From: Mobula hypostoma
Lineage: Eukaryota
Direction of reading: 5' to 3'
Assembly (NCBI RefSeq): GCF_963921235.1
Contig: NC_086097.1
Location: forward strand, 76,076,001 to 76,140,000
Length of the DNA: 64,000 nt
The notes beneath the pieces are model-generated. The model ran no database searches. It was not told the origin of the DNA and worked only from the letters and a program-made list of their open reading frames with translations. Positions 1-49,600 of this stretch are shown one piece after another (within the stretch, counting starts at the first letter, position 1; each line of letters opens with the position of its first letter). Position numbers and translations under genes: made by a program.

Positions 1-163
1 GTTTGGTATTTCTAGCATTTTGTTTTATTTCAGATTTACAGCTTCTACAGCTTTTTTCTTTAATTTTGATTTTGTGATTTGTTTAGGAATAGGCTTCAAA
101 TTCATTTTAATTTCAAATTGGAACTGTCAATGGCCCACACTTAGTCACAGGCTGAATGTGTAC

Positions 164-967
164 GTGTAAGCGGAACAAGTGCTACACATGCCCTTACACT
201 TCCTCCCTTACCACCATTCAGGGCCCCAAACAGTCCTTCCAGGTGAGGCATCACTTCACCTGTGAGTCGACTGGGGTGATATACTGCGTCCGGTGCTCCC
301 GATGTGGCCTTTTATATATTGGTGAGACCCGACGCAGACTGGGAGACCGCTTTGCTGAACATCTACGCTCTGTCCGCCAGAGAAAGCAGGATCTCCCAGT
401 GGCCACACATTTTAATTCCACATCCCATTCCCATTCTGACATGTCTATCCACGGCCTCCTCTACTGTAAAGATGAAGCCACACTCAGGTTGGAGGAACAA
501 CACCTTATATTCCGTCTGGGTAGCCTCCAACCTGATGGCATGAACATTGACTTCTCTAACTTCCGCTAGGCCCCACCTCCCCCTCGTACCCCAGCTGTCA
601 CTCATTTTTATGCACACATTCTTTCTCTCACTCTCCTCCTTTTTCTCCCTCTGTCCCTCTGAATATTCCTCTTGCCCATCCTCTGGGTCACCCCCCCCCC
701 CCGTCTTTCTCCCTAGGCCTCCTGTCCCATGATCCTCTCGTATCCCCTTTTGCCTATCACCTGTCCAGCTCTCGGCTCTATCCCTCCCCCTCCTGTCTTC
801 TCCTATCATTTTGCATCTCCCCCTCCCCCTCCAGCTTTCAAATCCCTTACTCACTCTTCCTTCAGTTAGTCCTGACGAAGGGTCTCGGCCTGAAACGTCG
901 ACTGCGCCTCTTCCTATAGATGCTGCTTGGCCTGCTGCGTTCACCAGCAACTTTGATGTGTGTTGCT
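164..967 (+). mobile_element. 5'-truncated Penelope-like element: GIY-YIG endonuclease end, pyrimidine-rich 3' region and hammerhead motif, with an 11-bp TSD
   Basis: ORF 156..569 reads CxxxxCxxC...VIYCVRCSRCGLLYIGET..RLGDRFAEH..PVATHF..EQHLIFRLGSLQPDGMN, a PLE GIY-YIG domain. TGAATGTGTAC is directly repeated at 153-163 and 968-978. Confidence 0.9.
868..903 (+). ncRNA. Minimal type-I hammerhead ribozyme motif (PLE-associated), predicted cleavage after GUC at 899
   Basis: AGTC-CTGACGA-A-GGGT-CTCG-GCCT-GAAAC-GTC-GACT. Stem I is AGUC/GACU, the CUGAnGA and GAAA core boxes are intact, stem II is a hairpin, and stem III is the loopless palindrome ACGU. Confidence 0.8.
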
Positions 968-1029
968 TGAATGTGTACATAATTTCTTTTAAAAAAATTT
1001 AATTGAAGAGGTATATTGAAGAGGTACGG

Positions 1030-1510
1030 AGGCCCAGGTTTTGAAGCTTATTGATGGGTATTGAAGGCCTCTTCTGCATCCTCTCCAACCAAAGATCCCA
1101 GCATTGACCCTTGCAGAAAACCACTAGTCATAGACCTCCAGTCAACAGCCCTTACTGCTCCCATTTGACCAAAACCGTTCCAAGTTTGATCTACCAAACC
1201 TCTATGGGTCTTGTGCTTTAATTTTCTGGATCGGCACACCATGAGGGTCCCTTGTGTAATGCTTCACTAAATTCCATGCTGATATCATCCACTGTACTAC
1301 CCAGAATGCCACTTCTTCAAAAAACACTCATTCAAATTTGTAAGATGTGATTTTCACCACATGCTGACTATCCCTAATAAATTTCTGCTTTTCTCAGACT
1401 CAAATAAATCCTATTTTAAGAACCTTAATAATTTCCTTACGACTGATGTAAGGGTCACCAGCTTATAACTTGGTTTGTTTCTATTGCCCTTCTTGAAATG
1501 TCGTACTGGC
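1030..1510 (-). mobile_element. Degraded CR1-like RT fragment
   Basis: Minus strand carries remnants such as WRSMTSGFLQGSMLG, matching CR1 RT motifs seen elsewhere in the window. Confidence 0.55.
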
Positions 1511-3028
1511 ATTTACTAAATTATTACTAATGATATATTAGAGTCCACCATCCTCTAAGGCAGGAATTTTCAACCTTTTTTATGCCATGGACCCTTACCA
1601 TCAACTGACAGACACATCTCCAAGGGAGTCACCAAAGAAGCCAATACAATGAGCAGGATTTCTTAGCAGTGTACAGAATATAAAAATCCAGATACATGTA
1701 TGCAGGTTGAAAGTAAAACTTGGCTACTTGTGGTATAAATATGAAAGTATTTTAGGCAGGGCACAATCGCATTTTTTTTTACCCCTCTCTCGTCCATTTC
1801 TGAAACAGGGCCTTCAATTTAAAACCTGAAAGACAAGTAACAACAGATACTGAATCTAAAACAATAATGGTCATAAAAGAACCAAACTGCTGGAGTAACT
1901 CAGCATTTATAGAGGCATAGGGATAATTGACTGTTTCTTTGTCTCCACAATAGATACCTGACCTACTGAGTTCTTCCAGTAGTCTGCTTCCCCATTCTAC
2001 CCCCCCCAATCCAAATGTTTTTCTTCCCTTAGAAATGCTAACCAACCTGCTAAGTGTTTCCAGTGTTTTCTGTTTTGTTATGTTAGAGATGGTCTTCTTC
2101 GGTATGCAGCAAGAACCATCATTGTAAGTAGAACTGGTGATAGATCTGATGGCAATACAAGGCCTTACAAGTTCCCACAAACAACTTGAGCAGGCATCAG
2201 ATTCGTATTAACGATTCATCATGGCTGTTGTAGCCATTTGGTCGAAAAATGTTTTTATATAGATTATGCATGAACTTCCAGTCAAGATGGCATCTGCACT
2301 AAATAAAATTAAAAATATAATTATGACTAGAGTAATCTTAGCCCAATGGTTATTTTGTGGCAATGTATTGTAGTTTTTTTGTTGTTGTCCTTCAAACAAC
2401 GCTACTAACACAAATCAAATATCATTTCTAAATTAGGGGCTAAGAGATGGCTTTATTAGTAATGACTTGAATATGATGTAGGCTTATCTTAGAATCTCAG
2501 TTAGTCAGATTTCATTGTGTGCTGTGGCTTTATTAGGAGCTCCTGGCATACAGATTCTTTGATAAGGTAGCACCATCCATCATTTTCGCTTGAATTTCTC
2601 AGGTTTGCTTTATTCTGTACAGTTTGTTTTTTTTTTGGTGTTCAGTGAACTGTAGTTTTCATTTATCATAACTTGACTTGAAGTGTATCCCCTCCATTAC
2701 CATAGAGTGCAATTGGATCAAATTGATAAGAGCTTGGGCTTTGTAAACTTATAAATCATCTTCAAAATCTTCAGTTACAGATACTTGATTGCAACTTTTT
2801 GTTGATCTACCCATTTTGATCAATGGCTTTAGTCTTTGCATTACTTACCATAAATGCAACTCCCTTCACTGTTTACTGTCGGCCCTCCTTATCCGTGAGG
2901 GATTGGTTCCGGGACCCCTCGCAGATGCTCAAGTCCCTTATTCCAGGGCTCCCCAACCTTTTCTTTGCATTGTGGAGCGGTTTAATATTGACAATATTCT
3001 TGCGGACCGGCCAACTGGGGGGGGGGTG

Positions 3029-6000
3029 ATTTTTTATTGAAGGAATGACACAATACAGAATATATAATGGATTACATTTTCCTCCATTTTGCTTTAGTAT
3101 CATACCCCCAAACAAACCTCCCCCCACCCGCCCTCCCCGAATGTATCATGGCAGTTAATGTATTTGTGAATTGTTGTGTTGTAAATATAAGTATGGACAT
3201 TTCACAACCATACCACCACACTACTTCAAGATGACAGCTCACACACATCTGCAACATGTCAGATGATCCAAAATACACTCATATTTACAATTCATCAACC
3301 ACCCTGTGAGGTAAATTATAAGTGTGTTAAATGGGAGGCAACTTCCCAAGTACAATCAAATGCCCTCAACTAGTAGGTAATTCCTTAAGACTCCCAAAAT
3401 ATGATAAGAAAGGTCCCCATTTCGAATAGAACTTTTTCACAGACCTCCTCAAAGTGAATTTAATCTTTTCTAATTTCAGAAAAACATTACATCTTCTAAC
3501 CAAGCAGCAGCAGTTGGGGGAGTGGCAGATTTCCAAACCAGCAAAATTCTCCTACGGGCCAATAGCGATGTAAATGCAATGATATCCGACTGGCTTGCAT
3601 TTAAACCCAAATCATCATCTGCCACACCAAAACAGCTATAAGTGGGCAAGGTCTCAGTGTCGCCCCCAAAACCTCACTGATAATTTTAGAAACCAGTGCC
3701 CTATAGTCATCAAGCTGAGGGCATGACCAAAATGCATGTATTAAACCAGCCGGAGAGAAGGAACACCTGTCACAGCCAGCGTCTGTCCCACGGTATATGT
3801 CCGCAAGTTTGGCTTTACTTAAATGTACCCTGTGTAAAACTTTAAATTCTATGAGCCCCAGTCTAGCACATGATGAGAAATGAACCCTATTCAATACTCT
3901 TGCCCAGTATTCCTCAGCCAGATCCATACAGAGGTCATCCTCCCACCTACTCTTAGTTTTGTTTAGATCTTGAACTCCCAAAGACATCAGCTGAGAGTAT
4001 AGTTCAGAGATCAGCCCTTTATTGTTAAAGCTAAGAGTGAGCTTTTCCCATAACATAGCAGATGGTAGATCAGGAAAAGAGGGACATTTTTCCTTGACAA
4101 AGTGGCAAATCTGCGGGTATTTAAAAAAAAAATGATTATGCGGAAGGCCATACTTACCGTGCAGGTTATCAAAACTATCAAATATGTTATCAGTATACAA
4201 ATCCTTAATGCGTGTAAGACCGTTCAAACCCCATTGTCTGAAAGCTGAATCGAATGGGGAGGGAGGAAATAATTGGTTTTTATGAATGGGGCCCAAAACT
4301 GAAGCTGATATGAACTTATAGTGGCGGCAAAATTGATTAAAAATTTTGAGAGTGGAGAGCACGACTGGGTTAGATGTAAATTGAGAGGATTTCAATGGTA
4401 AGGAAGAATACACCAAAGCTGGGAGAGACAAGGTGTGGCAAGACCGTGACTCAAGCAGGCACCAGACTATATCTGGCCGGTGGAGCCAAAATAATACTTT
4501 TTGAATGTTCCATGCCCAGTAATAATGAATAAAGCTGGGAAGACCCATTCCACCTATGTCACGACCTCTTTGGAGAGAGTGCTTATTAACCCTTGGGACC
4601 TTATTTTCCCAAATAAAGGAGGTTATAGCTTGGTCGACTGATTTAAAAAATAACTTAGATAAGAAAACTGGCAAACACTGAAAGAAATAAAGAAATTTAG
4701 TCATTTTCACTGATTGAATTCTCCCAGCTATAGTAAGGGGTAAACTGCGCCCTCTCTCGAAATCAGTCTTAATTTGGCTAACCTGAGGCCTGTAGTTAAC
4801 TTCAAACAGAGATGTAAAAGAGCGAGTAATATGTATTCCTAGGTATACAAAACCATCTTGAGACAAAGGAAAAGGCAAAGATTCCTGTTGGATCTGTAAG
4901 GCCAAGTTATTAATGGGAAAGCATTTGCTTTTTTGAAAGTTCCGTTTATAGCCAGAGAAGGCTCCAAATTGACCTAATAATGACACAATAGCAGGACTAC
5001 TACCTACAGGGTCGCTAACATAAAGTAAGAGGGATACACTGTGTTTCATGTCCCCTTTTCTAACACCTTGAAATAATGTAGTTGGCTTAAGTGTAATAGA
5101 AAGAGGCTCAATTGCAATTGCAAAAAGAAGAGGGGACAATGGGTAGCCTTGGTGAGTGCCACGTGTTAATGGGGAAATAGTCAGATCGAAAATAATTTGC
5201 CTGTATACATGCTAAAGGCGAGTGGTATAATAGCTTAAGCCAAGCTACAAATATTCTGCCAAATCCAAATTTCTCCAAAACACTAAACAAGTATACCCAC
5301 TCCACTCTATCAAACGTCTTCTCTGCGTCCAAAAAGATAACAACCTCCGGACTTGGAGAATCACTGGGTGAATAAACCACATCAGCCAGTCGACGGATAT
5401 TAAAAAAAGAATAAGCGATTTTTAATAAAACCTGTTTGATCGTGTGAAATTATCTTGGGAAGGGGACATTCTAAACGGTATGCAAGCACTTTAGCCAAAA
5501 TTTTCACATCTACATTCAAAAGTGAAATGGGGCGATATGATCCACATTGAGTCGGGTCCTTGTCCTTTTTAAGAAGTAGTGAAATAGCTGCTTGTGAAAG
5601 GGAAGGGGATAAGGAGCCGTTCTCCAAAGATTCCTGAAACACTTCTAGAAGGACCGGTATGAGCTTATCCTTAAATTTCTTATAAAATTCTATTGGATAA
5701 CCATCAGGACCTGGGGACTTGCCACTCTGCATAGCCATAATGGCATTATTCATCTCGTTCTGCCCAAGAGCCCGATCTAGGTTCTCCATCTCCTCTGGTT
5801 CAAGAGTTGGTATTTCCAATCATCTTAAAAAACGTTCCATATTTGTTTTATCTGAGGGGAACTCTGAGGCATACAGAGAGGAATAAAAAGTTGCAAAGAT
5901 GTTATTAATCTCTTTTGGATTGCTTGTCAAGTTTTGGTGTGTGTCTCTTTATCTGGCGAATAAGTCGTGATGCAGCTTGACGTTTCAACTGATGAGCCAT

Positions 6001-8814
6001 AAGACGGCTCGCCTTGTCACCATATTCATAATAGAGGCCACGTGTCTTAAGAATTAATTGTTCTGATAAGTTTGTAGATAGAAGACTAAACTTTGCTTGC
6101 AGATCAACCCAGCTTTTATATAATTCCACAGTGGGTGCCTCGGAGTATTTTCTATCCAGGTCCAAAATAGATTGCAATAACACTTGCATTTCCTTCCTAT
6201 GCTTTTTATTGGTGTGTGAAGTATAAGATATTATTTGACCCCGCAAGTAAGCTTTTAAAGTTTCCCAAAGTAAAGAGTACAATACTGACTCAGCTTTGTT
6301 AGTCTCGAAGAATGTGTCAATGTTAGCCGACGTATAACTACAAAATTTCTCATTAGAAAGCAAAAGGGGGTTAAGTCTCCACAGAGGCCGTTCTCTAACG
6401 TTTAAAGGAAAACATAGGTCCAGTTTCACGGGCGAGTGATCAGATATAACTATAGCAGTGTATTCAATTTGTCTAATCATTGGTATCAAGGAGTTATCTA
6501 TAAAGAAATAGTCTAGCCTGGAATAGGAGTGGTGAACATGAGGAAAGAAAGAGAATTGCCTAACTGATGGATTCAAAACTCTCCAAGGATCCATATAACC
6601 ATTTTGTTGCATAAACATCGAGAAGGCCTTTGCCATACCAGAAAATGTTTCCCTAGGACAAGACCTATCAAGCAGTGGGTCAATAGCCCAGTTCGAATCT
6701 CCGGAAAAGATTAGCTTATGTGTATTCAGGTTAGGTATTAATGATAAAACCTTATTTGCGAATTGGACATCGTCCCAATTAGGGGCATAAACATTTACCA
6801 AAATAACAGGTATCTGAAAGAGAGAGCCAGAGACTATAATAAAGCGACCATTAGGGTCACTGATTACATCAGATGGTGTGAACTACATTCTCTTGGTGAT
6901 TAATATTGCCACTCCCCTGGACCTACTATTAAATCTGGAATGAAAAACCTGACTAATCCATGCTTTACGAAGTCTATTATGGTCCTCCACTCTTAAATAT
7001 GTCTCTTGTAGAAATAGTATATCTGCTTTTAATTGTTTCAGATGAGAGAAAACTTTAGCTCTTTTAACCAGACCATTGAGCCCCTTTACATTCCAAGAAA
7101 TAAACCTCACAGGGTGGCCTCCATCAGCAGCACTCATGTTAACCATATCAAAAGACACACAGGGCCTACAATCCAAAACAGTGCGAGGGCATAAATTGCA
7201 CACAATAACACACAATGAAAAGAAAGTCTGATCAATCTGTAACACACAAAAGAATAAACTGCCATGGTAATCCCCCAAAACACTTCCCCCACCCCTTTAC
7301 GCATACAACAAAAAAACCCAATTAACCCCCAAAACCTAGATCTACCTCCCCAATTGAGGATGATCGCAGGCAGTACCCAACAAAAAACTTCCAAGGCGTT
7401 CTCCGTACAGCCCAACTTGCAATCTAGTCTAGGGTGGCTCCCCTCCTTAAAATTTATCCTATCACTTATACTACCTTTAATATAACATATAGGCTAAAGA
7501 TGACACAGGTCAAGCTAAGCATTAAAGACAAAAAAAAACACTAGGCAACTTAAACGCCCGAGATACAAATCCCAGATATTTACATTTTGCTGGTTGAAAG
7601 TTTTTGTTAATCAGTTTCGGCAGCATAGCAGTTCAACCCCATCGCATTCCACAAGTTAAACTGGAAAAAATGAACAAAGAAGTGGATTGTGAAAATTAAC
7701 AGTTTGCCTCGGCATGAGGCCCCTTCAATGCTGCGTGAATAACCTAAAAATAAAGTCATTGCTCTTCTCGTTCTTCTCCTCCCCAGCACGCATGGTAAAG
7801 CTCTTTGGCCGCCTCTGGTGTTTCGAAATAATGCTTTTTACCTTCATGCATGACCTGGAGCTGGGCAGGATACAAGAGGCCGAACCTGACCCCTTTCCCG
7901 TAAAGCAGGGATTTCACCTCCTTGAAAGCTGCTTGTTTTTTACCCAGCTCTGCACTAAAATCTTCATAAAAAAACACGCGGTGTCCGCGGAAATACAGCT
8001 CCTGCTTCCGTCTATTGATGATGCGTTGCTTATCTTGAAAGGAGTGAAAGCAAACCAGGAACGTTCTTGGTCTCATTTGCTTGGCTTCAGAGACACCGGA
8101 TGGTTTACATCCGACTCGGTGAGCACACGAAAGTACAAGAGGCCTTGGGAAAAAATTTGTCCCCAGCACTTCGTCAAAAAACTCGGTCATAAATTTAACA
8201 GGGTCTGAACCTTCCAAATTTTCAGGAATGTCGACCACTCTCAAATTGGATCTCCGCGACCGATTTTCGAGATCATCTAGCTTTCCCTTCAGAAATGCGT
8301 TTTCGCTCTGCAACGCTGCAATGGCGGCTTCGGCGCTCACCAGTCGGTCACTGTAATCATTCAGGCCATCCTCAACCTCACGAATGCGTTCGTCGTGCGA
8401 CTCGTAAGAAGACATAATTTGTTCCATGGTAGCATTCACTGGTGATAAAGCATCTTCAAAGTTCTCTTTTTAGGGCAGAATGCACCACTTGCGTCATGTC
8501 AATAATAAGTACTAAACGAAGCCTCTCCAAGTCATCGGGTAGCGCAGGTCCAGGTCCAGGTCCAGCAGCGTGCAACGGCGCCATTACTGTAACATCAGCC
8601 TTCTTGCTCGAGGCTTTGCTATCTTTTTCCCCAGTTTTACTTCGAAGGTACATTCTACTTGCCATTTCAATGTCCAGCTATGTCCCGCATTGTTCACAAT
8701 GGTAAATATTCAGTTATCTCGAGCATACAGCAAAGATAAACAGGTAGATTTTCAATAAAAATCGTGAGCCACACTCACATGCACCGACTCACGCCATACT
8801 CAACCCCGGAAGTC
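3029..8814 (-). mobile_element. Full-length, decayed L1-clade LINE: ORF1 about 8665-7756, ORF2 about 7140-3380 (APE, RT, CCHC)
   Basis: ORF1 coiled-coil/RRM (LENRSRRSNLRVVDIPE) has a 1-nt frameshift near 8458. ORF2 pieces include ISWNVKGLN, ILFLQETY, YSRLDYF, SDHSPV, KSPGPDG, YRPISLLNVDVKILAKVLA, LDAEKTFDRV and CDRC..HAFWSC. The 5' end reads GACTTCCGG; AATAAA and a short A-tail mark the 3' end. No clear TSD. Confidence 0.92.
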
Positions 8815-8831
8815 AACATGTCTTTTACAGT

Positions 8832-9324
8832 TAGGGTTGCCAACTTTCTCACTCCCAAATAAGGGACAAAAGTAGCAGTCAAATCCCGGGACACTTTACC
8901 TCAGGAGAGACTACCATGACCATGAAGCCTTGCGCGGGCACCTGTGTGCGCATGCGCGTACATGCCGATTTTTCCTCCCACAAATCGGTTTTGCCTTCAT
9001 CTTCCCAACTATACTGTACATACATTATTTCTACTTTATATAGGCTGTGTATTTATCATATTATTCCTGCTTTTACTGTATGTTAGTGTTATTTATTTTC
9101 GGTTTTATGTGTTATTTGGTATGATTTGTTAGGTTTTTTTTGGGTCTGAGAATGCTCAGAAATTTTTCCCATATAAATTAATGGTAATTGCTTCTTCGCT
9201 TCACGCCATTTTGGCACGAAAGGTTTCATAGGAATGTTCTACGTTAGCGGGGAAAATACAGGACAAACCAATATAGCCCAATATACGGAATGTCCCGGCA
9301 AATACAGGACAGTTGGCAACCTTA
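8832..9324. mobile_element. Small TIR element that itself contains a Tigger terminal fragment (about 8995-9258)
   Basis: 13-bp imperfect TIRs TAGGGTTGCCAAC / GTTGGCAACCTTA. The internal segment is the reverse complement of the left end of the element at 34640-36002. Confidence 0.6.
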
Positions 9325-10537
9325 TGTTCAAGTTCAACAGTGCGTGACAGGGAATGAGGAAAGGTGCAGCTGACTCGTATTGTTTCCTCATGGCCCGGTA
9401 GCACATGCTTTGCAGCCCAGCGGTTGGGGACCGCTGCCTTATTCAACCTGTCTAAATGCAGTGGACCTTAGGACCCAGTGGAACCCCGGACCTTACTTAA
9501 CTTGGCTCAGTGTGGTGGATATTAGGACTCGGTGGCGGAGCTCTGAATCAGCAGTATTTCTGTTCACGAAAATAATCATGATCGCGATTTAAAATAAAGT
9601 GGAAATAATAAAGCGATCGGAAAGGGGTGAAACACCATCAGTCATTGGAAAAGCGTTAGGCTACAGTCGGTCAATGATCGGAACAATTTTAAAGAACAAA
9701 GTGAGAAAAGCCCTGCCCCGATTAAAGCTACGATTATTACTAAGCAACGCAGTAGTTTAGTTATTGGGTTTTGGGTTTTTGAATCTTCACATCAACCCGG
9801 CACGGATGGAGAGCGTGCTCGGAAACGGTCTGTCACTGGATCGAACTCAGGAATTTCCGTTCCTGAGCCCAGTGCTGAAACATACGTTTCTTAAGTGTCT
9901 TATATGCATAGAAAGGTAAAATATATACTATATACTAAGACAAACATTTGACTAACTGACGCTAAATAATACCGTATGTACCTGTTCCCACTTACTGAGC
10001 AAGAGAACTTCTGATTTTTTTTCGATCCCAATCCATGATAACCTGCTGACATCCTCCCGTATACTTTAAATCATCTCTAGATAACTTATAATACCTAATA
10101 CAATGTAAATGCTATGTAAAATAGTTGTTATTCTGCATTGTTTAGGGAATGACGAGGAAAAAAAAGTCTGTACGTGTTCGAACAACAAGTGCTGGAAGAG
10201 CACTTCCAGGGTTTCTCAATTCGTGGTTGGTTGAATTCGCGCATGCGGAACTCGCGGATAAGGAGGGCCGACAGTACTTGTCAAGTAAAGCAACTTAAAG
10301 TCCTATGGGCTAGCGCATAATTTTTTTTCCATAGACTATGCTCGAAATCTTAGGAGTTTGCAAATCAAATGCATTGTCAAGTGTGTAAAGGAATACACTT
10401 GGAATTTAACCAAAGTTATAATTTTGTATGTTATGTGTTTTTTTTTATTATACGTGCTATCTTGGGGAATTTTGGTATTCAGTAATATTTAATTTGAAGC
10501 AAATTGTGGAATCAGTTTATTTTTGTTTTGGATTTAG

Positions 10538-10626
10538 GACAAGAAAATAACGTACAGTGGTGTGTTTGGTACCCCTCTGCATGCTCTTCCACAATGCACT
10601 CTCCTTGAACGTGCCAGCATTCCTCA
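10538..10626 (+). CDS. ARHGAP11A: ARHGAP11A exon, 89 nt ([29 protein letters not shown])
   Basis: tttag|GAC acceptor and CA|gtaagt donor; VFGxPL motif at the start of the RhoGAP domain. The 5' boundary is less certain because the upstream exon is absent. Confidence 0.85.
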
Positions 10627-13600: not shown

Positions 13601-16600
13601 GACCACTTCAGTGAAATTCTCCAATCATGTTTATCTCAACGTCCTGGATGGTCCTAAGTACGTCCAACTCCAGTTCTTTAATGCAGCCAGTCAAGAGCTG
13701 TAGCTGGGCACACCTTCCACTTGCTAGGAGTTTCCCTGATCTCCCACATGATACCCTATCTTGTATTTTATACCCAGCTAATGAAGGTAAATGTGTCATA
13801 TTCCTTCACTGGCCTTTTGACTTCTATTGCTATTTTCAAGGAACAATGCACTTGGACCCCTCAGTCTCTTTGTTTATCAGCATTCCTCAATGCCTATTTG
13901 TTTACTGTGCATGTCCTACCCCTATTTCACTTTTCCCAAATGCACCTTGCACTTACCAGGATTAAATCTACTTGCTCTGTTCAACTTCCTAGTTGTAGCC
14001 TATCTTCTTGACTATTTATGGCATCACTGATTTTTGTTTTGCTGGCAAACTTGCTATTCATCCCTCCTACACTTGCTTCCAAGGTGATAGTGTTAATTCA
14101 CAAACAGCTAATTGGTCTGGTTGAATATTTTTGAAATAAATATTGTAAAATATATAACACATCAGATATCAAGTCTCAAACTGAACCTGATACATAATAT
14201 TTTAATCATAGTCTCCTAATGGTAACCTTTCAGTGAAAATTGTTCTGTTACACCACTTTCACACTGGTTGTAGCTCATTTAAATGTTAAGCCAGAGCTAA
14301 CCGTACATTATTTTAATAGATTAGAAATAATTAAATTATTAACCAACATCTAACTGACATTTTGTTCATGATCTGCACTTTTAGGTTTCTTGTTGATGCC
14401 TGCAGCTACTTAGAAAAGCACATTCACACAGAAGGACTCTTCAGAAAATCAGGATCTGTGACTCGTCTTAAAATTTTAAAGGTACTGAGCAATACTTAAT
14501 TTCTATTGCTAACCCTGAATCTCTATTACTGTGACATGAGGATAGTTTCACTTTCCTCATTGCTTCATAGAAGTGGATTGTTGGCACCACAAATGCTACC
14601 TTCATGGCATATTTTTCTATTATTCTCAATGGAATATCCAAAGAATCCAGATGTCACAATAGTTTGTAGTGTTGTAGAGCGAACTCATTCTGCTCATTTG
14701 TTGATTCTGAATATAATTTGATTGGTTATCATGTAAATTATTACTTCATCTGGTACTGGTTTGTTATGGAGAACTTCAAATTTTTAATATCTTCATCCTC
14801 ATTTTAATGTTCTTCCACCACCATTGATCCCTGCCACATAAAATTCTACATGCCCTTTACCCTTGAGATTCCTACTTTCTAATAATTAAGACCTCTTGAA
14901 GTTGTCTTTGCAAGTCAACTTTGCTCCATTGTTTGCTGTACTTTGGATTTTAAGGCAAACTCTGGAGTTTTGCCTTTGAATTTATCCACCCCCACCCCTC
15001 AACCTGCCTATTTAGAGTTAAAATTCTAATATCTCCTTATACCACCCAGAGTCAAATTTAAGGCAACTATCAAGCACATTCGGATATTTACTTAGTTACT
15101 TAAGTTATGTAAAAGGCATCTTGCTGTCACAACATCAATTGTTTCGTGTTCTCCACTCCCCTCACCCACTTCTGCCACATCCTGTCTGAATGTTCAACAC
15201 TACTTGTTTTGTATCAATCGCAATCTAGTCAACAAACCAGCAGACAAGGGTGAAGCTGTTGTAGTCTGATGGACTGATTTCTACCTTGCAGAGGCCAGGT
15301 GGCAGCACTTGGACACCACCTCATTCCCCTGGGCTATGACCCCACCAATGTACACCAGGCCACTTTCTCACATGCCATCACGGATCTCTCCTGAGCCTTG
15401 CACTTGATACTGCCTCAAACCCACACTTCCCACTTTTATTTCCTACCCAAGATCTATAAACTGAACTGTCCTGGTATGTCCATTATTTCTGCCTGCTGTA
15501 GCTCCACTGAACTTGTATCTTCATACTTTGACCTGATCCTGTTTGGCTGGTTCCTTCCCACCTATATCCTGGACACCACACGTGCAATCCACCATTTTGT
15601 CAACATTTAATTTGCTGTCCCATCTGCCTCACCTTCTTTGGATGCCCAATCTTTGTATACCTCTCTCCCCCCATTAGGTTGAAACTGAGGAGGAGACGCT
15701 TGTCTTTACACTTTTTTATGTTTCCTCCTTTTCTTGCATTTAGTTCTACTTGTTGCTTTTTAAAGAGTAATGAATTTTCCTTTGTTAAACTCCAAGCTTT
15801 TTTTTTGTAAAAATATAGTCTGCTAATTGAATGTCAGGTGCATTTATTTTGGTAGACAATATTTAAAATGGATAGATTAATTTTGATAAGTGATTAAGCA
15901 CATTGTAACTTTTTTCACATTTTTCAAATCATATTAATACCGGTCAGTCTTGCTGTCAAAGGAAGTAATAAATTGATGAAATTAAAGCTTGCATTTAGTT
16001 CTTTCACTGAATGTAATATTTTCAAACACAGCCTTTTAAAATTTTTTCGCATATTTAAGAAGTTTGCTCTAATCTGAGGGGTTGTGCTGTATGATTTTGG
16101 TAGGGTATCATGAGGGTTGTTCTGCATTTATATCTATTGACATCCCTGTCTGGAGTGTACACTACTAATGTGAATGCAATATGTTTGTTTCTCTAGGCCA
16201 AAGTGGATCAGGGTGAAAAATGGCTTACTCTGTCGCCACCCTGTGATGTGGCAGGTTTGGTTAAACAATTTTTTCGGGAGCTGCCTGAGCCTGTACTTCC
16301 ACTGGAATTGCATGAAGCTTTCTTCAGAGCACAACAGCTGCAAAATGATGAGAAGATTTCTGCCACAATTCTTCTTTCCTGTTTGCTCCCTGAGAAAACT
16401 ATTGATACATTGCACTATTTCCTGAAGTTCCTTAATAACGTGTCCCTCAGGTTCGTATTCTGGTCTATTGTGTGGTAAATTACTGACAAATAGATTAATT
16501 TATATTTGTATCAAAATTGTTTTCAATGTATCAGAAATATGTAATTTAATCCTGAAAAGGGGTTGCAGACCTGAAACATTCACTGTTTCTCTTTCCACAG

Positions 16601-34600: not shown

Positions 34601-37600
34601 GTAAGTTTAGCTGCTGAAGCTTCCATCCCAAGATTTGTACAGGTTTCACCCGCCATCCGAAGGTAAGGCGTTCCTATGAAACGGTTCGTAAGCTGGAATG
34701 TCGTAAAGTGAAGAAGCAATTACCATTTATTTATATGGGGAAAAATTTGTGAACGTTCGCATACCCAAAAAATAACCTACCAAATCATACCAAATAACAC
34801 ACAAAACCTAAAACAACAGTAACACATAGTAAAAGCAGGAATGATATGGTAAATACACAGCCTATATAAAGTAGAAGTACTTTTCTACAATCATTGCCGC
34901 ACTGTTCTCCATAGCGAAAATCTCACACAAGCGCTCTCGGCGGAAACATTCTCTCCAGTAACCTTTAAGCTGTGAAGCTGCCAAATCATACCAAATAACC
35001 AATAAAAATACACAGCCTATATAAAGTAGAAATAACGTATGTACAGTGTAGTATCACTTACGGGAATCTGGAAGACAGCGCCGAGCACACTGATGATGGT
35101 GTGTTAGGCTGAGTCATCGGAGGTTGGGGTGGTGCAGTGGTACCCAACCTCCGGGCAGCGAACCGATACCAATCACAATCACCTCTGATCTGGGCCCACA
35201 TTTAGGTGCCGGGCGGCACCTAATTAATTAGCTTGTTTCTTTTGGCTTTTCTCTTAAAGATGTGCTGGGTGTGTCCCGGCTACTGCTGCATTCTCTGTGG
35301 CCCGGGGTTGGGGTGGTGGGACACTGGGGTGTCAGCTCATCGTCATCAGTTTCCATCAGGGTAGGCAAGTCATCATCTTCTATGTCTGCCTGCCTTGATG
35401 TCAAAGGTCGAGGTTCGTCGGCTGATGTGGAAGGTTTGAGAAACGACAGTATGCTTGTCTGTTAGCCTCGCATATTTTTCTATCATCTCATGAAGTTACA
35501 TCATATTCAGTTCTTAGACAACTTCACTTTTGGTCCATTTGCTACTGCATTCGGTTTCGATTGTTATCTTTTCCTCTTCCAATTGTATCAGCTCTTCAAT
35601 CAGTTCTTGGTCATAGGATGCCAAAACCTCTTCAACATCATCTTCCTCGGCTTCCACAAGCCAAACTCACTTTGTCCTTACTTCGTTCATCACGATTGAA
35701 ATGCTTAATTATGTCTAGTTTTACGCTAAGTGTAACACCCTTACGAGCTCTTTTAGGCTTTTCTGATATCTTCGAACTCATCTTGCTACGGCTGCTTATA
35801 GGCACATGTTTGAACAATGCCGGCTAGAATGCAGTTCCGGGGGAGGAGTTTGGCTGCTTGGGGCGCGAGCTTTTTTTCGCGCGCTGTCTTTTTTTTTGTA
35901 ACAGTGAAAACACCTTCTGTTAGCGAAAACAGGTAGCTAATATAGGTCTTTCGTAACAGCGATATTTCATAAAGCGAATATTCGAAAAGTGGGGGACACT
36001 TGTACTACAAAATTAAAAAGAGCAATTCTTATAAATTTGTGGAAATTTGCCATCCTTAAGTTTACTTGTTCTCTTTATTGTATTTTACCTTATTTAGGAA
36101 TTATTTTTCTACAAGAATATCATTTAAAATAGTTATTGTCGTTATTAATTCAGAAGTTATGATCTCTTTAAATGCTTCTAAATATAAAACACAACCTGTT
36201 ATTAGTTGTATATAACAGTTGTTATAGCAAAAGCCTAGCTAATGTTGAGTAGTCAGGTCTGCTTCATGGAAGAGCTATGATAGTGAAGACTGGAACTCAC
36301 TTTGACCTGTGAAGCTACAGAAGGTTCAGCATGATTACCACGAGTACAGGTAGCCTTGCAGATAATGATAAACATCAAGCTTTTATTACTTTGTTATGAA
36401 CTATCAGGCCAACTGAAGTATTGTTTAATTGAACCATACTGCTTACAAGAAATTTGGTTGCTCAAATCTTTTTACTTGGTTTGCTGCTTATCAGTGTAAC
36501 CACCTCCTCACAACAGACTAACCTCCAACTCGGAACTCAACTAACTCTCAACTTTTTTTTTTCCATTCAATTGTGCCTCCCAAAGCCCCTTTTCCAATTT
36601 CCTGGCATTTGATTCATATCATGTCTTTATTTGCCTCTTTTCTATTTTTTTTAAACTTCAAACTCACCTCTTCAACTCGGTAGTTAGTCATCCTTCCAAA
36701 ATACACTCTTATCTCTAGTGGTTTCTTTTTGCCGGTTCAGGTTTTTGCTAAGTGCCCTGCCCCATTTTAACGTGTTCTTTAAATAATATTGAAAACTGAC
36801 ATTAAAATTTGCAAATGCATGTCATAAACACTTTGAATTATCACAAAGGTGTTCACAAGTTGACATTTTTAAATGCATTGAAACTTTATGCAAATATGGT
36901 AGTCATTCTGGCATCATGTATGTAACATTATACATGCTGGTCCATTTGGGGCTTCATTTTGCACTTTATTGTCTTTTATACGTTAATCTGGAAAAATAAT
37001 GTGATTGTCACAAAGTCAATAATATACACTGCTAACAACACAGACACACAAAATGCTGGAGGAACTCAGCAGGTCAGTCAGCATCTCTGGAAAAGAATAC
37101 AGTCGATCTTTCAGTCCGAGATCCTTCATCAGGACTAATGATAGATCTCAGCCCGAAACATCAACTGTACACTTTTTTCCATAGATACTGCCTGGCCTGC
37201 TGAGTTTCTCCAGCATTTTGTGTGTGTCGTTTGGATTTCCAGTATCTGCAGATTTTCTCTTGTTTGTGATTGAGCATACACTCCTATTTCTTCAGGTTGT
37301 GTTCCAGAGTTTATCTTGGAAAAAATTCCAGCAATGCTTGGTGATTGTGTAGCATCTAAAACGCCTTCATTAGAAACCTTGGAAGATGGAGATGGTTCAA
37401 GAGTGGAAGAGAGCAAAAGAAGAAGGCGTCGAAGTGTTGGAGGTTAATAAAATTTTTTCTATGTCATTTATTTTCTAAATGTTTTCATATTATTTTATAG
37501 ATTATTGTAAATCTATCTTTTATAGCCTACAATATTTACTGGCATGTTTTTGACACTTAATTCTGTTAATCATAATCTGTTTTCCATGCACATACTGTTA

Positions 37601-46600: not shown

Positions 46601-49600
46601 TCCTTTGTTCAGTTTTTTCTTCTTAACCATCTTATATGAGGTGTTGCTCCTCCAACCTGAGTTTAGCCTCATCAGGGGAAGCAGAGTTGAAGTGGGTGGC
46701 TACTGGGAGATCCTGTACCCCACTTCAACTCTGCTTCCCATTCCCATTCAGATATGTCCATACATGGCCTCCTCTACTGCCATGATGAGGCTAAACTCAG
46801 GATGGAGGAGCAACACCTCATATACTGTCTAGGTAGTCTCCAGCCCCTTGGTATGAACGTAGAATTCTCCAACTTCCGGTAACTCCCTCCCCCCCCCCCC
46901 CATCCCTATTTCACTCTACCCGCTCCCCCACACCAGCTCCCTCATGGTTCCACCTCCTTCTACTACCCATTGTTTTCAGGGCTATGACATCAATGCTTCC
47001 CCTCCCCCACCCCTTTGTCTTTCAAATTACTGGTCTTTCAACTGAAGCTACAAGCATTCTTCAAATCCTTCCCCATCTTTCGTTCTTCAGTCCTGACAAA
47101 GGGTTCCGGCCCGAAACATCGACTCATTGTTTCTAACTGATGCTGCCCGACCTGCTGAGTTCATCCAGCGTACTGAAAGTGTTGCTTTAATCACAGCATC
47201 TGCAGATTATTTTGTATATATAAAGTTTAGTACATCTCAGACTCTTGGAACTCAATTCACTTAAAGTAGGCAGGCATTCAGTTCATCCTTAACTCTTAAC
47301 GACTTTGCATTTAACTTTTCTCATTTGCTGTTTATTTATATTGAACCACAAAATCTCATGGGTAATTAGATGTAATGCATAGAAGATGAACTGGCCAGGC
47401 TCAATTCAGTGGGTTGTAGCCTGCCTTGTATTCCAAATTCAGGGTCCTCTTTTCATAATTGTTGTTTTTGGGTTATTATTGCTCATGACCTTAAGTGTTT
47501 TGTATAATTTCTCCTAATCTTTAGTCATATTCTATTCTCATATCCCAATTAAGCCCATTAAAAAGGTGAAGATTCAGCAATTTGCATGTATGGAATTTGT
47601 ACCGTATAGCCTACATTATAATAAGGGACTACTTTATAGAAACATAGAAACATAGAAAATAGGTGCAGGAGTAGGCCATTCGGCCCTTCGAGCCTGCACC
47701 GCCATTTATTATGATCATGGCTGATCATCCAACTCAGAACCCAGCCTTCCCTCCATACCCCCTGACCCCTGTAGCCACAAGGGCCATATCTAACTTCCTT
47801 TTAAACATAGCTAATGAACTGGCCTCAACAGTTTGCTGTGGCAGAGAATTCCACAGATTCACCACTCTCTGTGTGAAGAAGTTTTTCCTAACCTCGGTCC
47901 TAAAAGGCTTCCCCTCTATCCTCAAACTGTGACCCCTCGTTCTAGACCTCCCCAACATCGGGAACAATCTTCCTGCATCTAGCCTGTCCAATCCCTTTAG
48001 GATCTTATACGTTTCAATCAGATCCCCCCTCAATCTTCTAAATTCCAACGAGTACAAGCCCAGTTCATCCAGTCTTTCTTCATATGAAAGACCTGCCATC
48101 CCAGGAATCAATCTGGTGAACCTTCTTTGTACTCCCTCTATGGCAAAGATGTCTTTCCTCAGATTAGGGGACCAAAACTGCACACAATACTCCAGGTGTG
48201 GTCTCACCAAGGCCTTGTACAACTGCAGTAGTACCTCCCTGCTCCTGTACTCGAATCCTCTCGCTATAAATGCCAGCATACCGTTCGCCTTTTTCACCGC
48301 CTGCTGTACCTGCATGCCCACTTTCAATGACTGGTGTATAATGACACCCAGGTCTCGTTGCACCTCCCCTTTTCCTAATCGGCCACCATTCAGATAATAA
48401 TCTGTTTTCCTATTTTTGCCACCAAAGTGGATAACTTCACATTTATCCACATTAAATTGCATCTGCCATGAGTTTGCCCACTCACCCAACCTATCCAAGT
48501 CACCCTGCATCCTCTTAGCATCCTCCTCACTGCTAACACTGCCACCCAGCTTCGTGTCATCCGCAAACTTGGAGATGCTGCATTTAATTCCCTCATCCAA
48601 GTCATTAATATATATTGTAAACAACTGGGGTCCCAGCACTGAGCCTTGCGGTACCCCACTAGTCACCGCCTGCCATTCTGAAAAGGTCCCGTTTATTCCC
48701 ACTCTTTGCTTCCTGTCTGCTAACCAATTCTCCACCCACACCAATACCTTACCCCCAATACCGTGTGCTTTAAGTTTGCACACTAATCTCCTATGTGGGA
48801 CCTTGTCAAAAGCCTTTTGAAAATCCAAATATACCACATCCACTGGTTCTCCCCTATCCACTCTACTAGTTACATCCTCAAAAAATTCTATGAGATTCGT
48901 CAGACATGATTTTCCTTTCACAAATCCATGCTGACTTTGTCCGATCATTTCACCGCTTTCCAAATGTGCTGTTATCACATCCTTGATAACTGACTCCAGC
49001 AGTTTCCCCACCACCGACGTTAGGCTAACCGGCCTATAATTCCCCGGTTTCTCTCTCCCTCCTTTTTTATGTTGTAGTAACACGCCGTTGCATGCGCTAT
49101 TAGGCACGTATAGATCTGTATGTGTGTGAGTAAAAGTTCAGACTCTACCAGTAAAGAACCATGAAACTTAGTTCCCGTCTCCAGTGTTTTTATTAACAAC
49201 TTAGTTGTGTAAACAGGCCACATACACAACGGAATTGTTCTGCCATCATGCCAGGCTGGTTTTTTTGCCTTCCTCTTCATTTCTGGATTACATTTCTTCC
49301 ATTGTTCTCTTACCTATACTTAATCTAGTCACCTTTATGACCACAGAAACTACAAGTTCCTTAACATCAAGAGTCTGTTCATTCTGCTGTTTGGCTTACT
49401 GAAGTCTTGTAAATTGGTACACACAAAGTTGGACAACTTTTTGCATCAATTTTAGAGATCCTAATGTTAGCCAGTAATGGTATTTTTTCTAGCAATTTGG
49501 GTGGTAGAGAGGTTTCTAATGATTTGAAAGTATATTGTTTATATTGATTGCTTTAAATTATTAAATTGAACTTAATTGTTCAATAAACCTGTATTATGAT

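Follow-up and report, generated by a model that had tools for sequence, protein, structure and literature searches.

A minimal hammerhead motif in a young Penelope-like insertion within intron 1 of Mobula hypostoma ARHGAP11A

A stretch of 64,000 nt of the Mobula hypostoma genome (contig NC_086097.1, positions 76,076,001 to 76,140,000 of the forward strand), referred to as a whole as the window, carries near its beginning a minimal type-I hammerhead motif in the truncated end of a young Penelope-like element (PLE), inserted in coding intron 1 of ARHGAP11A. This solitary, Neptune-type copy is probably a passenger of the intron, predicted to cut its transcript rarely or never and likely without any role for the host. 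Judged by its letters, the motif is a real minimal hammerhead motif of the Penelope type and an ordinary member of a class already described, the PLE minimal hammerheads. The features on which this reading builds are collected in Table 1.

Table 1. Features of the element and the host gene in the window.
Feature	Positions	Strand	Basis or remark
ARHGAP11A coding intron 1, part in the window	1..10537	+	14,815 nt in total, with its start 4,277 nt ahead of the window
5' target-site duplication, 11 bp	153..163	+	identical 11-mer at 968-978; its final 1-3 nt are shared with the element
Open frame: C-x4-C-x2-C linker and GIY-YIG end of the element ORF	156..569	+	PF01541, E 3.3e-5
5'-truncated 3' end (pLTR part) of a young Neptune-type PLE	161..972	+	29 closest copies 95-99% identical; without the ~30-nt tail
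Pyrimidine-rich 3' UTR of the element	570..867	+	common to other copies
Minimal type-I hammerhead motif	868..903	+	read from sequence; fits the PLE consensus of PMC4209133 Fig. S3
Element 3' end	904..972	+	belongs to the first of two end clusters; +73 nt after the cut site here
3' target-site duplication	968..978	+	read from sequence; its first 5 nt are shared with the element
ARHGAP11A coding exon 2	10538..10626	+	flanked by AG/GT; keeps the frame of exons 1 and 3; spliced contigs cover it
ARHGAP11A coding exon 3, start of the RhoGAP domain	14385..14481	+	PF00620; tblastn with ARHGAP11A proteins

Architecture of the hammerhead motif

Stem I (868-871/900-903), to which U867-G904 could add a fifth pair, closes a core in which CUGANGA (C3-A9, 872-878), GAAA (G12-A15.1, 892-895) and UH (U16.1 at 898, C17 at 899) are all present. 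Stem II is formed by 880-883 and 888-891 around a loop at 884-887. Helix III consists of a loopless palindrome, ACGU (895-898, including C896 and G897), helix I is short at 4-5 bp, and the cut is predicted to fall between 899 and 900. A preliminary description of this DNA had claimed an intact core, stems I and II and a loopless palindromic stem III, all of which are borne out letter by letter. A879 is an additional nucleotide between A9 and G10.1, and PMC4209133 reports such an insertion after A9 as a conserved feature of the minimal hammerheads of PLEs. In secondary-structure prediction, the register that leaves A879 unpaired has pair probabilities of 0.87-0.97, against 0.02 for the alternative register with an A879-U891 pair, which was set aside as disfavoured. 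At 10.1-11.1, G880 pairs with U891 where a G-C pair is usual, and the motif agrees with the cross-phylum PLE consensus everywhere but at position 11.1. In Fig. S3 of PMC4209133, 11.1 is C in the >80% consensus, G-U is found in the cichlid, coelacanth(1), Xenopus(1) and Lottia rows, and the stems differ between PLE families.

It is hardly conceivable that the motif is a chance look-alike of a hammerhead, because it matches the PLE consensus except at 11.1, occupies the expected place in the pLTR and belongs to a set with a clean descriptor control. A minimal-hammerhead descriptor returned 32 matches in 1.55 Mb, every one of them in this Penelope family, and none in the reversed control. An Rfam scan of positions 1-3000 returned no hammerhead at E ≤ 10 and three weak unrelated matches. 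The exact 34-mer (869-902) had no match in 100 shuffles of the window; the loose core pattern alone was not significant in the window, its count being reached in 17 of 100 shuffles. Besides the lack of an Rfam match, a chance origin could draw on the fold of the 36-mer, which is no better than that of shuffles (z -0.37), and on the stems of the genomic copies. Stem covariation across these copies, whose absence the preliminary description would have taken as a refutation, did not emerge: among 48 distinct variants, which belong to one family and are uninformative on this point, the stems showed decay, changes were one-sided or pair-breaking, two-sided cases were single at most, and none was compensatory.

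A young, truncated Penelope-like element

The description of the host sequence as a young Penelope insertion held up: the 11-bp target-site duplication is intact, only one private change is present, and the relatives are 95-99% identical, a range that applies to the best 29 other genomic copies, with 40 of 349 candidates scored. The element match in those 29 copies starts at 161-163, and since most of them continue further upstream, the window copy is taken to be 5'-truncated. Position 667 is the only letter of the window copy absent from all 29, and a single private letter points to a very young insertion. The motif had been placed about 300 nt downstream of the GIY-YIG frame, and the distance measured from the stop at 569 is 299 nt. 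The in-frame ATG of this frame comes from the target duplication, with the result that the truncated copy reads as a linker and GIY-YIG frame of 137 aa; its translation is unlikely, since it is intronic.

Longer copies have a reverse transcriptase (RT) ahead of GIY-YIG in a single ORF, open frames of 825-828 codons occur, and two loci (L009 and L016) show RVT_1 followed by GIY-YIG, both under curated cut-offs. The arrangement pLTR-ORF-pLTR was found in one of the five loci extended (L289+L009), where 3.5 kb separate two hammerheads on the same strand and an inverted 5' copy is present; partial tandems with pLTRs and an inverted 5' copy have been described for PLEs (PMC8557442). The optional tail of 30-40 nt that such elements have is matched here by the two clusters of 3' ends. 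According to the same source, a CX2-5CxxC linker between RT and EN marks Neptune and Nematis, and the element is called Neptune rather than Nematis because its host is a vertebrate. We infer a Neptune-type EN+ Penelope-like element, an assignment drawn from the linker and the host.

Position in ARHGAP11A

The final exon matches ARHGAP11A proteins, with the best protein match in Callorhinchus, and the RhoGAP exons lie on the + strand. The preliminary description had supposed that the missing first exon lay upstream, which would place the motif in sense orientation within an intron, and this proved right. Coding exon 1, which occupies 4,391-4,278 nt ahead of the first letter of the window, sits under a CpG island; exons 1, 2 and 3 join in frame, and spliced contigs connect exon 1 with exon 2. 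The exon 1-2-3 junctions are present in contigs of three of four runs (X1, X3 and X5, from two studies), which shows splicing of the gene, whether or not the animals sampled carry this insertion. None of the runs listed with the sequence is recorded as RNA; their contigs carry no read ends, strand or level, and repeat depth in them is summed over the whole family. Two further repeats accompany the gene: a G-rich tandem repeat ~4,800-4,420 nt before the window (L031), which separates the CpG island from the start codon of ARHGAP11A, and a fragmented LINE in the same intron (window 3601-6882, - strand) with endonuclease and RT frames (PF14529, PF00078).

Copy number and orientation in genes

The exact 34-mer occurs in 36,060 copies in 3.48 Gb, with none in the reversed-genome control, and the core-intact pattern in 101,427 copies genome-wide, with 124 in the control. 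At one exact copy per 96 kb, a sense intronic occurrence is ordinary. Copy number is the only notable aspect of the motif, being about ten times the counts given in PMC4209133, which were obtained by different methods. The variant with G-C at 10.1-11.1 accounts for 5,457 copies against the 36,060 with G-U, and a dominant young subfamily with G-U instead of G10.1-C11.1 fits either tolerance of this pair or a relaxed need for the canonical one.

These numbers bear on the idea that ARHGAP11A has recruited, or is recruiting, the insertion as a regulator, a domestication in the manner of the conserved amniote intronic hammerheads. A domesticated hammerhead of the RECK type would be locus-specific and conserved; here 36,060 identical copies and a young insertion are found. 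The motif does lie in sense orientation in intron 1 with its core intact, as domestication would have it, but the insertion is very young, as its single private change and unbroken target duplication show, is identical in its motif to 36,060 others and lacks a stable helix III, which makes domestication very improbable.

Orientation was sampled in 12 gene spans, from which 140 pieces of 10 kb each were taken between Sushi or spectrin exon matches on the same strand; the sample is small and its spans are defined by domain matches alone. Of the intact copies, 17 lay in sense and 12 in antisense orientation (p 0.46; 95% CI 0.39-0.76 sense); exact copies were 14 sense and 7 antisense, the 21 seen comparing with ~14.5 expected from the genome mean. 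Core-only copies were 28 sense and 16 antisense, and degenerate ones 118 and 132. Nothing in these 12 gene spans points to sense copies being selected against. An absent sense depletion does not imply absent cutting, because an intron cut by a hammerhead can still be spliced (PMC2995048); it bears more on the cost to the host.

Capacity of the solitary copy to cut

Of the 11 family matches in the window, the motif alone is intact, and of the seven in intron 1 it alone bears the core; no intact same-strand partner was found within this intron. The nearest sense relatives in which the core is largely retained lie at ~28.2 and ~47.1 kb and carry altered core letters. Older related sequences in the window include a remnant at 46691-47172 (+) with a GIY-YIG end and a hammerhead with a changed core, and a head-to-head pair of degenerate hammerhead-bearing pLTR ends at 37048-37222. 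The predicted monomer fold pairs G874-G877 with C896-C899, which buries the core. By secondary-structure prediction, the core is open with a probability of 1e-3 in the motif by itself and of 1e-6 within its surroundings, and the ACGU duplex is assigned -1.7 kcal/mol, values that leave out tertiary contacts, Mg2+ and proteins.

Minimal PLE hammerheads in published work have not cut as monomers. The minimal PLE monomer of Schistosoma was reported without cleavage, and dimers or multimers cut little or weakly (PMC4209133). One of nine Xenopus retrozyme dimers has been reported to cut. The Anolis motif cuts only when the element protein is present; insertion in vitro does not require the motif, and RNA-seq shows no read ends at its cut site (PMC11167929).

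The motif would serve the full element, in which the two copies that flank the ORF, 3.5 kb apart, could pair through their 4-nt palindromes, probably with the assistance of the element protein; in the transcript of such a tandem source it would act as a weak ribozyme, either dimeric or protein-aided. Alone in the pre-mRNA, the motif may fold with its core paired off and leave with the spliced intron. That the core was kept in an amplifying lineage suggests that it matters to the element. Elsewhere in the genome, core-intact same-strand hammerheads lie 460 nt apart (L042:1976 and 2436) and 676 nt apart (L040:973 and 1649), and are candidate natural dimers.

Genomic record of cutting

Copies that start at G900, the first nucleotide after the predicted cut, number 338, compared with 39 at 899, 87 at 901, 152 at 892 and 993 at 874; the comparison is rough, as the patterns differ in prefix and denominator. 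An excess at G900 was considered as a cut-site signature and rejected, given the controls at 874 and 892 and the nature of the junctions, which are mostly inversions. Among the G900 starts inspected, 22 of 29 are inversion junctions, 21 of these with 1-5 nt of microhomology, and inversions make up 27 of 30 and 22 of 30 loci in the two control sets; the junction lay outside the element assignment at 3, 3 and 6 loci in the three inspected start sets, and L194, which overlaps L193, was excluded. The hammerhead core also contains an inversion hotspot: in 18 of the 30 inspected 874 starts (L216-L245), the junction with the inverted arm falls at one and the same position and shows 3 nt of microhomology.

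T-run junctions at G900 number 13, five of which are clean insertions. The latter, ~65-105 nt long (L278, L279, L280, L283 and L285), begin at the predicted cut or at most 2 nt from it in T-rich host DNA, and form a class without a control. Neither U6 nor any other Rfam RNA was found in the 13 T-run junctions and 28 other loci with cut-site starts, and a U6 fusion at the cut site was rejected for this subfamily. At the other end of the element, 26 of 27 young copies terminate +60-71 or +99-107 nt past the cut site, from which it would follow that reverse transcription began 3' of the site and that the cDNA crossed it in an uncut or re-ligated state. As read from these junctions, the genomic record leans towards the absence of a clear signature of cutting.

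It is nevertheless conceivable, if unlikely, that this copy cuts its pre-mRNA at a low rate, with help from a PLE protein or through trans pairing to other PLE-derived RNAs, and that splicing tolerates the cut, leaving it neutral. Cleavage of the Anolis motif with protein, the more than 100,000 core-intact copies in the genome, the deep coverage of the family sequence in RNA-like contig sets (a depth that belongs to the whole family), the continued splicing of hammerhead-cut introns and the 338 starts at G900 are all in keeping with such cutting. The last of these is countered by the predominance of microhomology-bearing inversions at G900 and by the far more numerous starts at 874; the absence of an Rfam RNA such as U6 at the loci with cut-site starts and the weakness of the 4-bp palindrome also speak against it. 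A broader variant, in which an expressed Penelope protein or RNA licenses trans cutting of many host pre-mRNAs, with ARHGAP11A intron 1 among them, is quite improbable. The reading of the copy as a passenger is preferred, and the view of the motif as a notable self-cleaving element of the intron, raised as a potential in the preliminary description, is not supported: it is one of 36,060 identical copies, has no same-strand dimer partner in the intron, and comes with neither sense depletion nor a clear cut-site signature.

Significance

The single locus in ARHGAP11A is of small importance. The family, with 36,060 identical motifs and full tandem sources, makes up a set of unusual size, youth and uniformity in which to ask whether PLE minimal hammerheads cut in vivo. 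If they did so in host transcripts, ~100,000 core-intact hammerheads, about half of the intragenic ones in sense orientation, would amount to a transposon-switched, transcriptome-wide system of intron cutting, and protein-licensed cutting of host introns would be a new route by which a transposon affects host RNA processing.

Comparison with known systems

No paper specific to PLE hammerheads of sharks or rays was found, although the supplements of existing papers may cover them; in the part of the PMC4209133 supplement that was searched, no cartilaginous fish was seen. The closest relatives of the motif are the metazoan PLE minimal hammerheads of Cervera and de la Pena 2014 (PMC4209133), which are reported there from Neptune, Poseidon and Xena elements of fishes. 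They share with it the core, the nucleotide after A9, the loopless palindrome at 15.2-16.2 and the short helix I, as well as the position in the pLTR and the mostly solitary occurrence in copies from truncated elements. Relative to that set, helix II is at the short end of the range with 4 bp, and the dominant subfamily closes with G-U, as do the cichlid, coelacanth(1) and Xenopus(1) rows. The ~101,000 core-intact copies of the ray compare with ~4,000 in coelacanth and ~9,000 in Xenopus, counted by other search methods.

The Anolis PAc Poseidon element (Frangieh et al. 2024, PMC11167929) likewise has a pLTR hammerhead, copies derived from unprocessed RNA and two 3' end positions ~30-40 nt apart beyond the cut site (the tail); it differs from the present element, which has the Cys linker of the Neptune/Nematis type. 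The amniote intronic hammerheads of the RECK type (PMC6155905) are also type I and also reside in an intron of a protein-coding gene, but they are conserved across species, whereas the motif described here is of minimal form and travels with a young, high-copy transposon. Non-LTR retrozymes (bioRxiv 10.64898/2026.07.22.740005) carry PLE-related type I hammerheads in vertebrates, including one chondrichthyan, and 42-44% of their Xenopus copies overlap introns. Retrozymes are short tandem non-coding units with a hammerhead in each, in contrast to the window copy, which is solitary and carries the end of an ORF.
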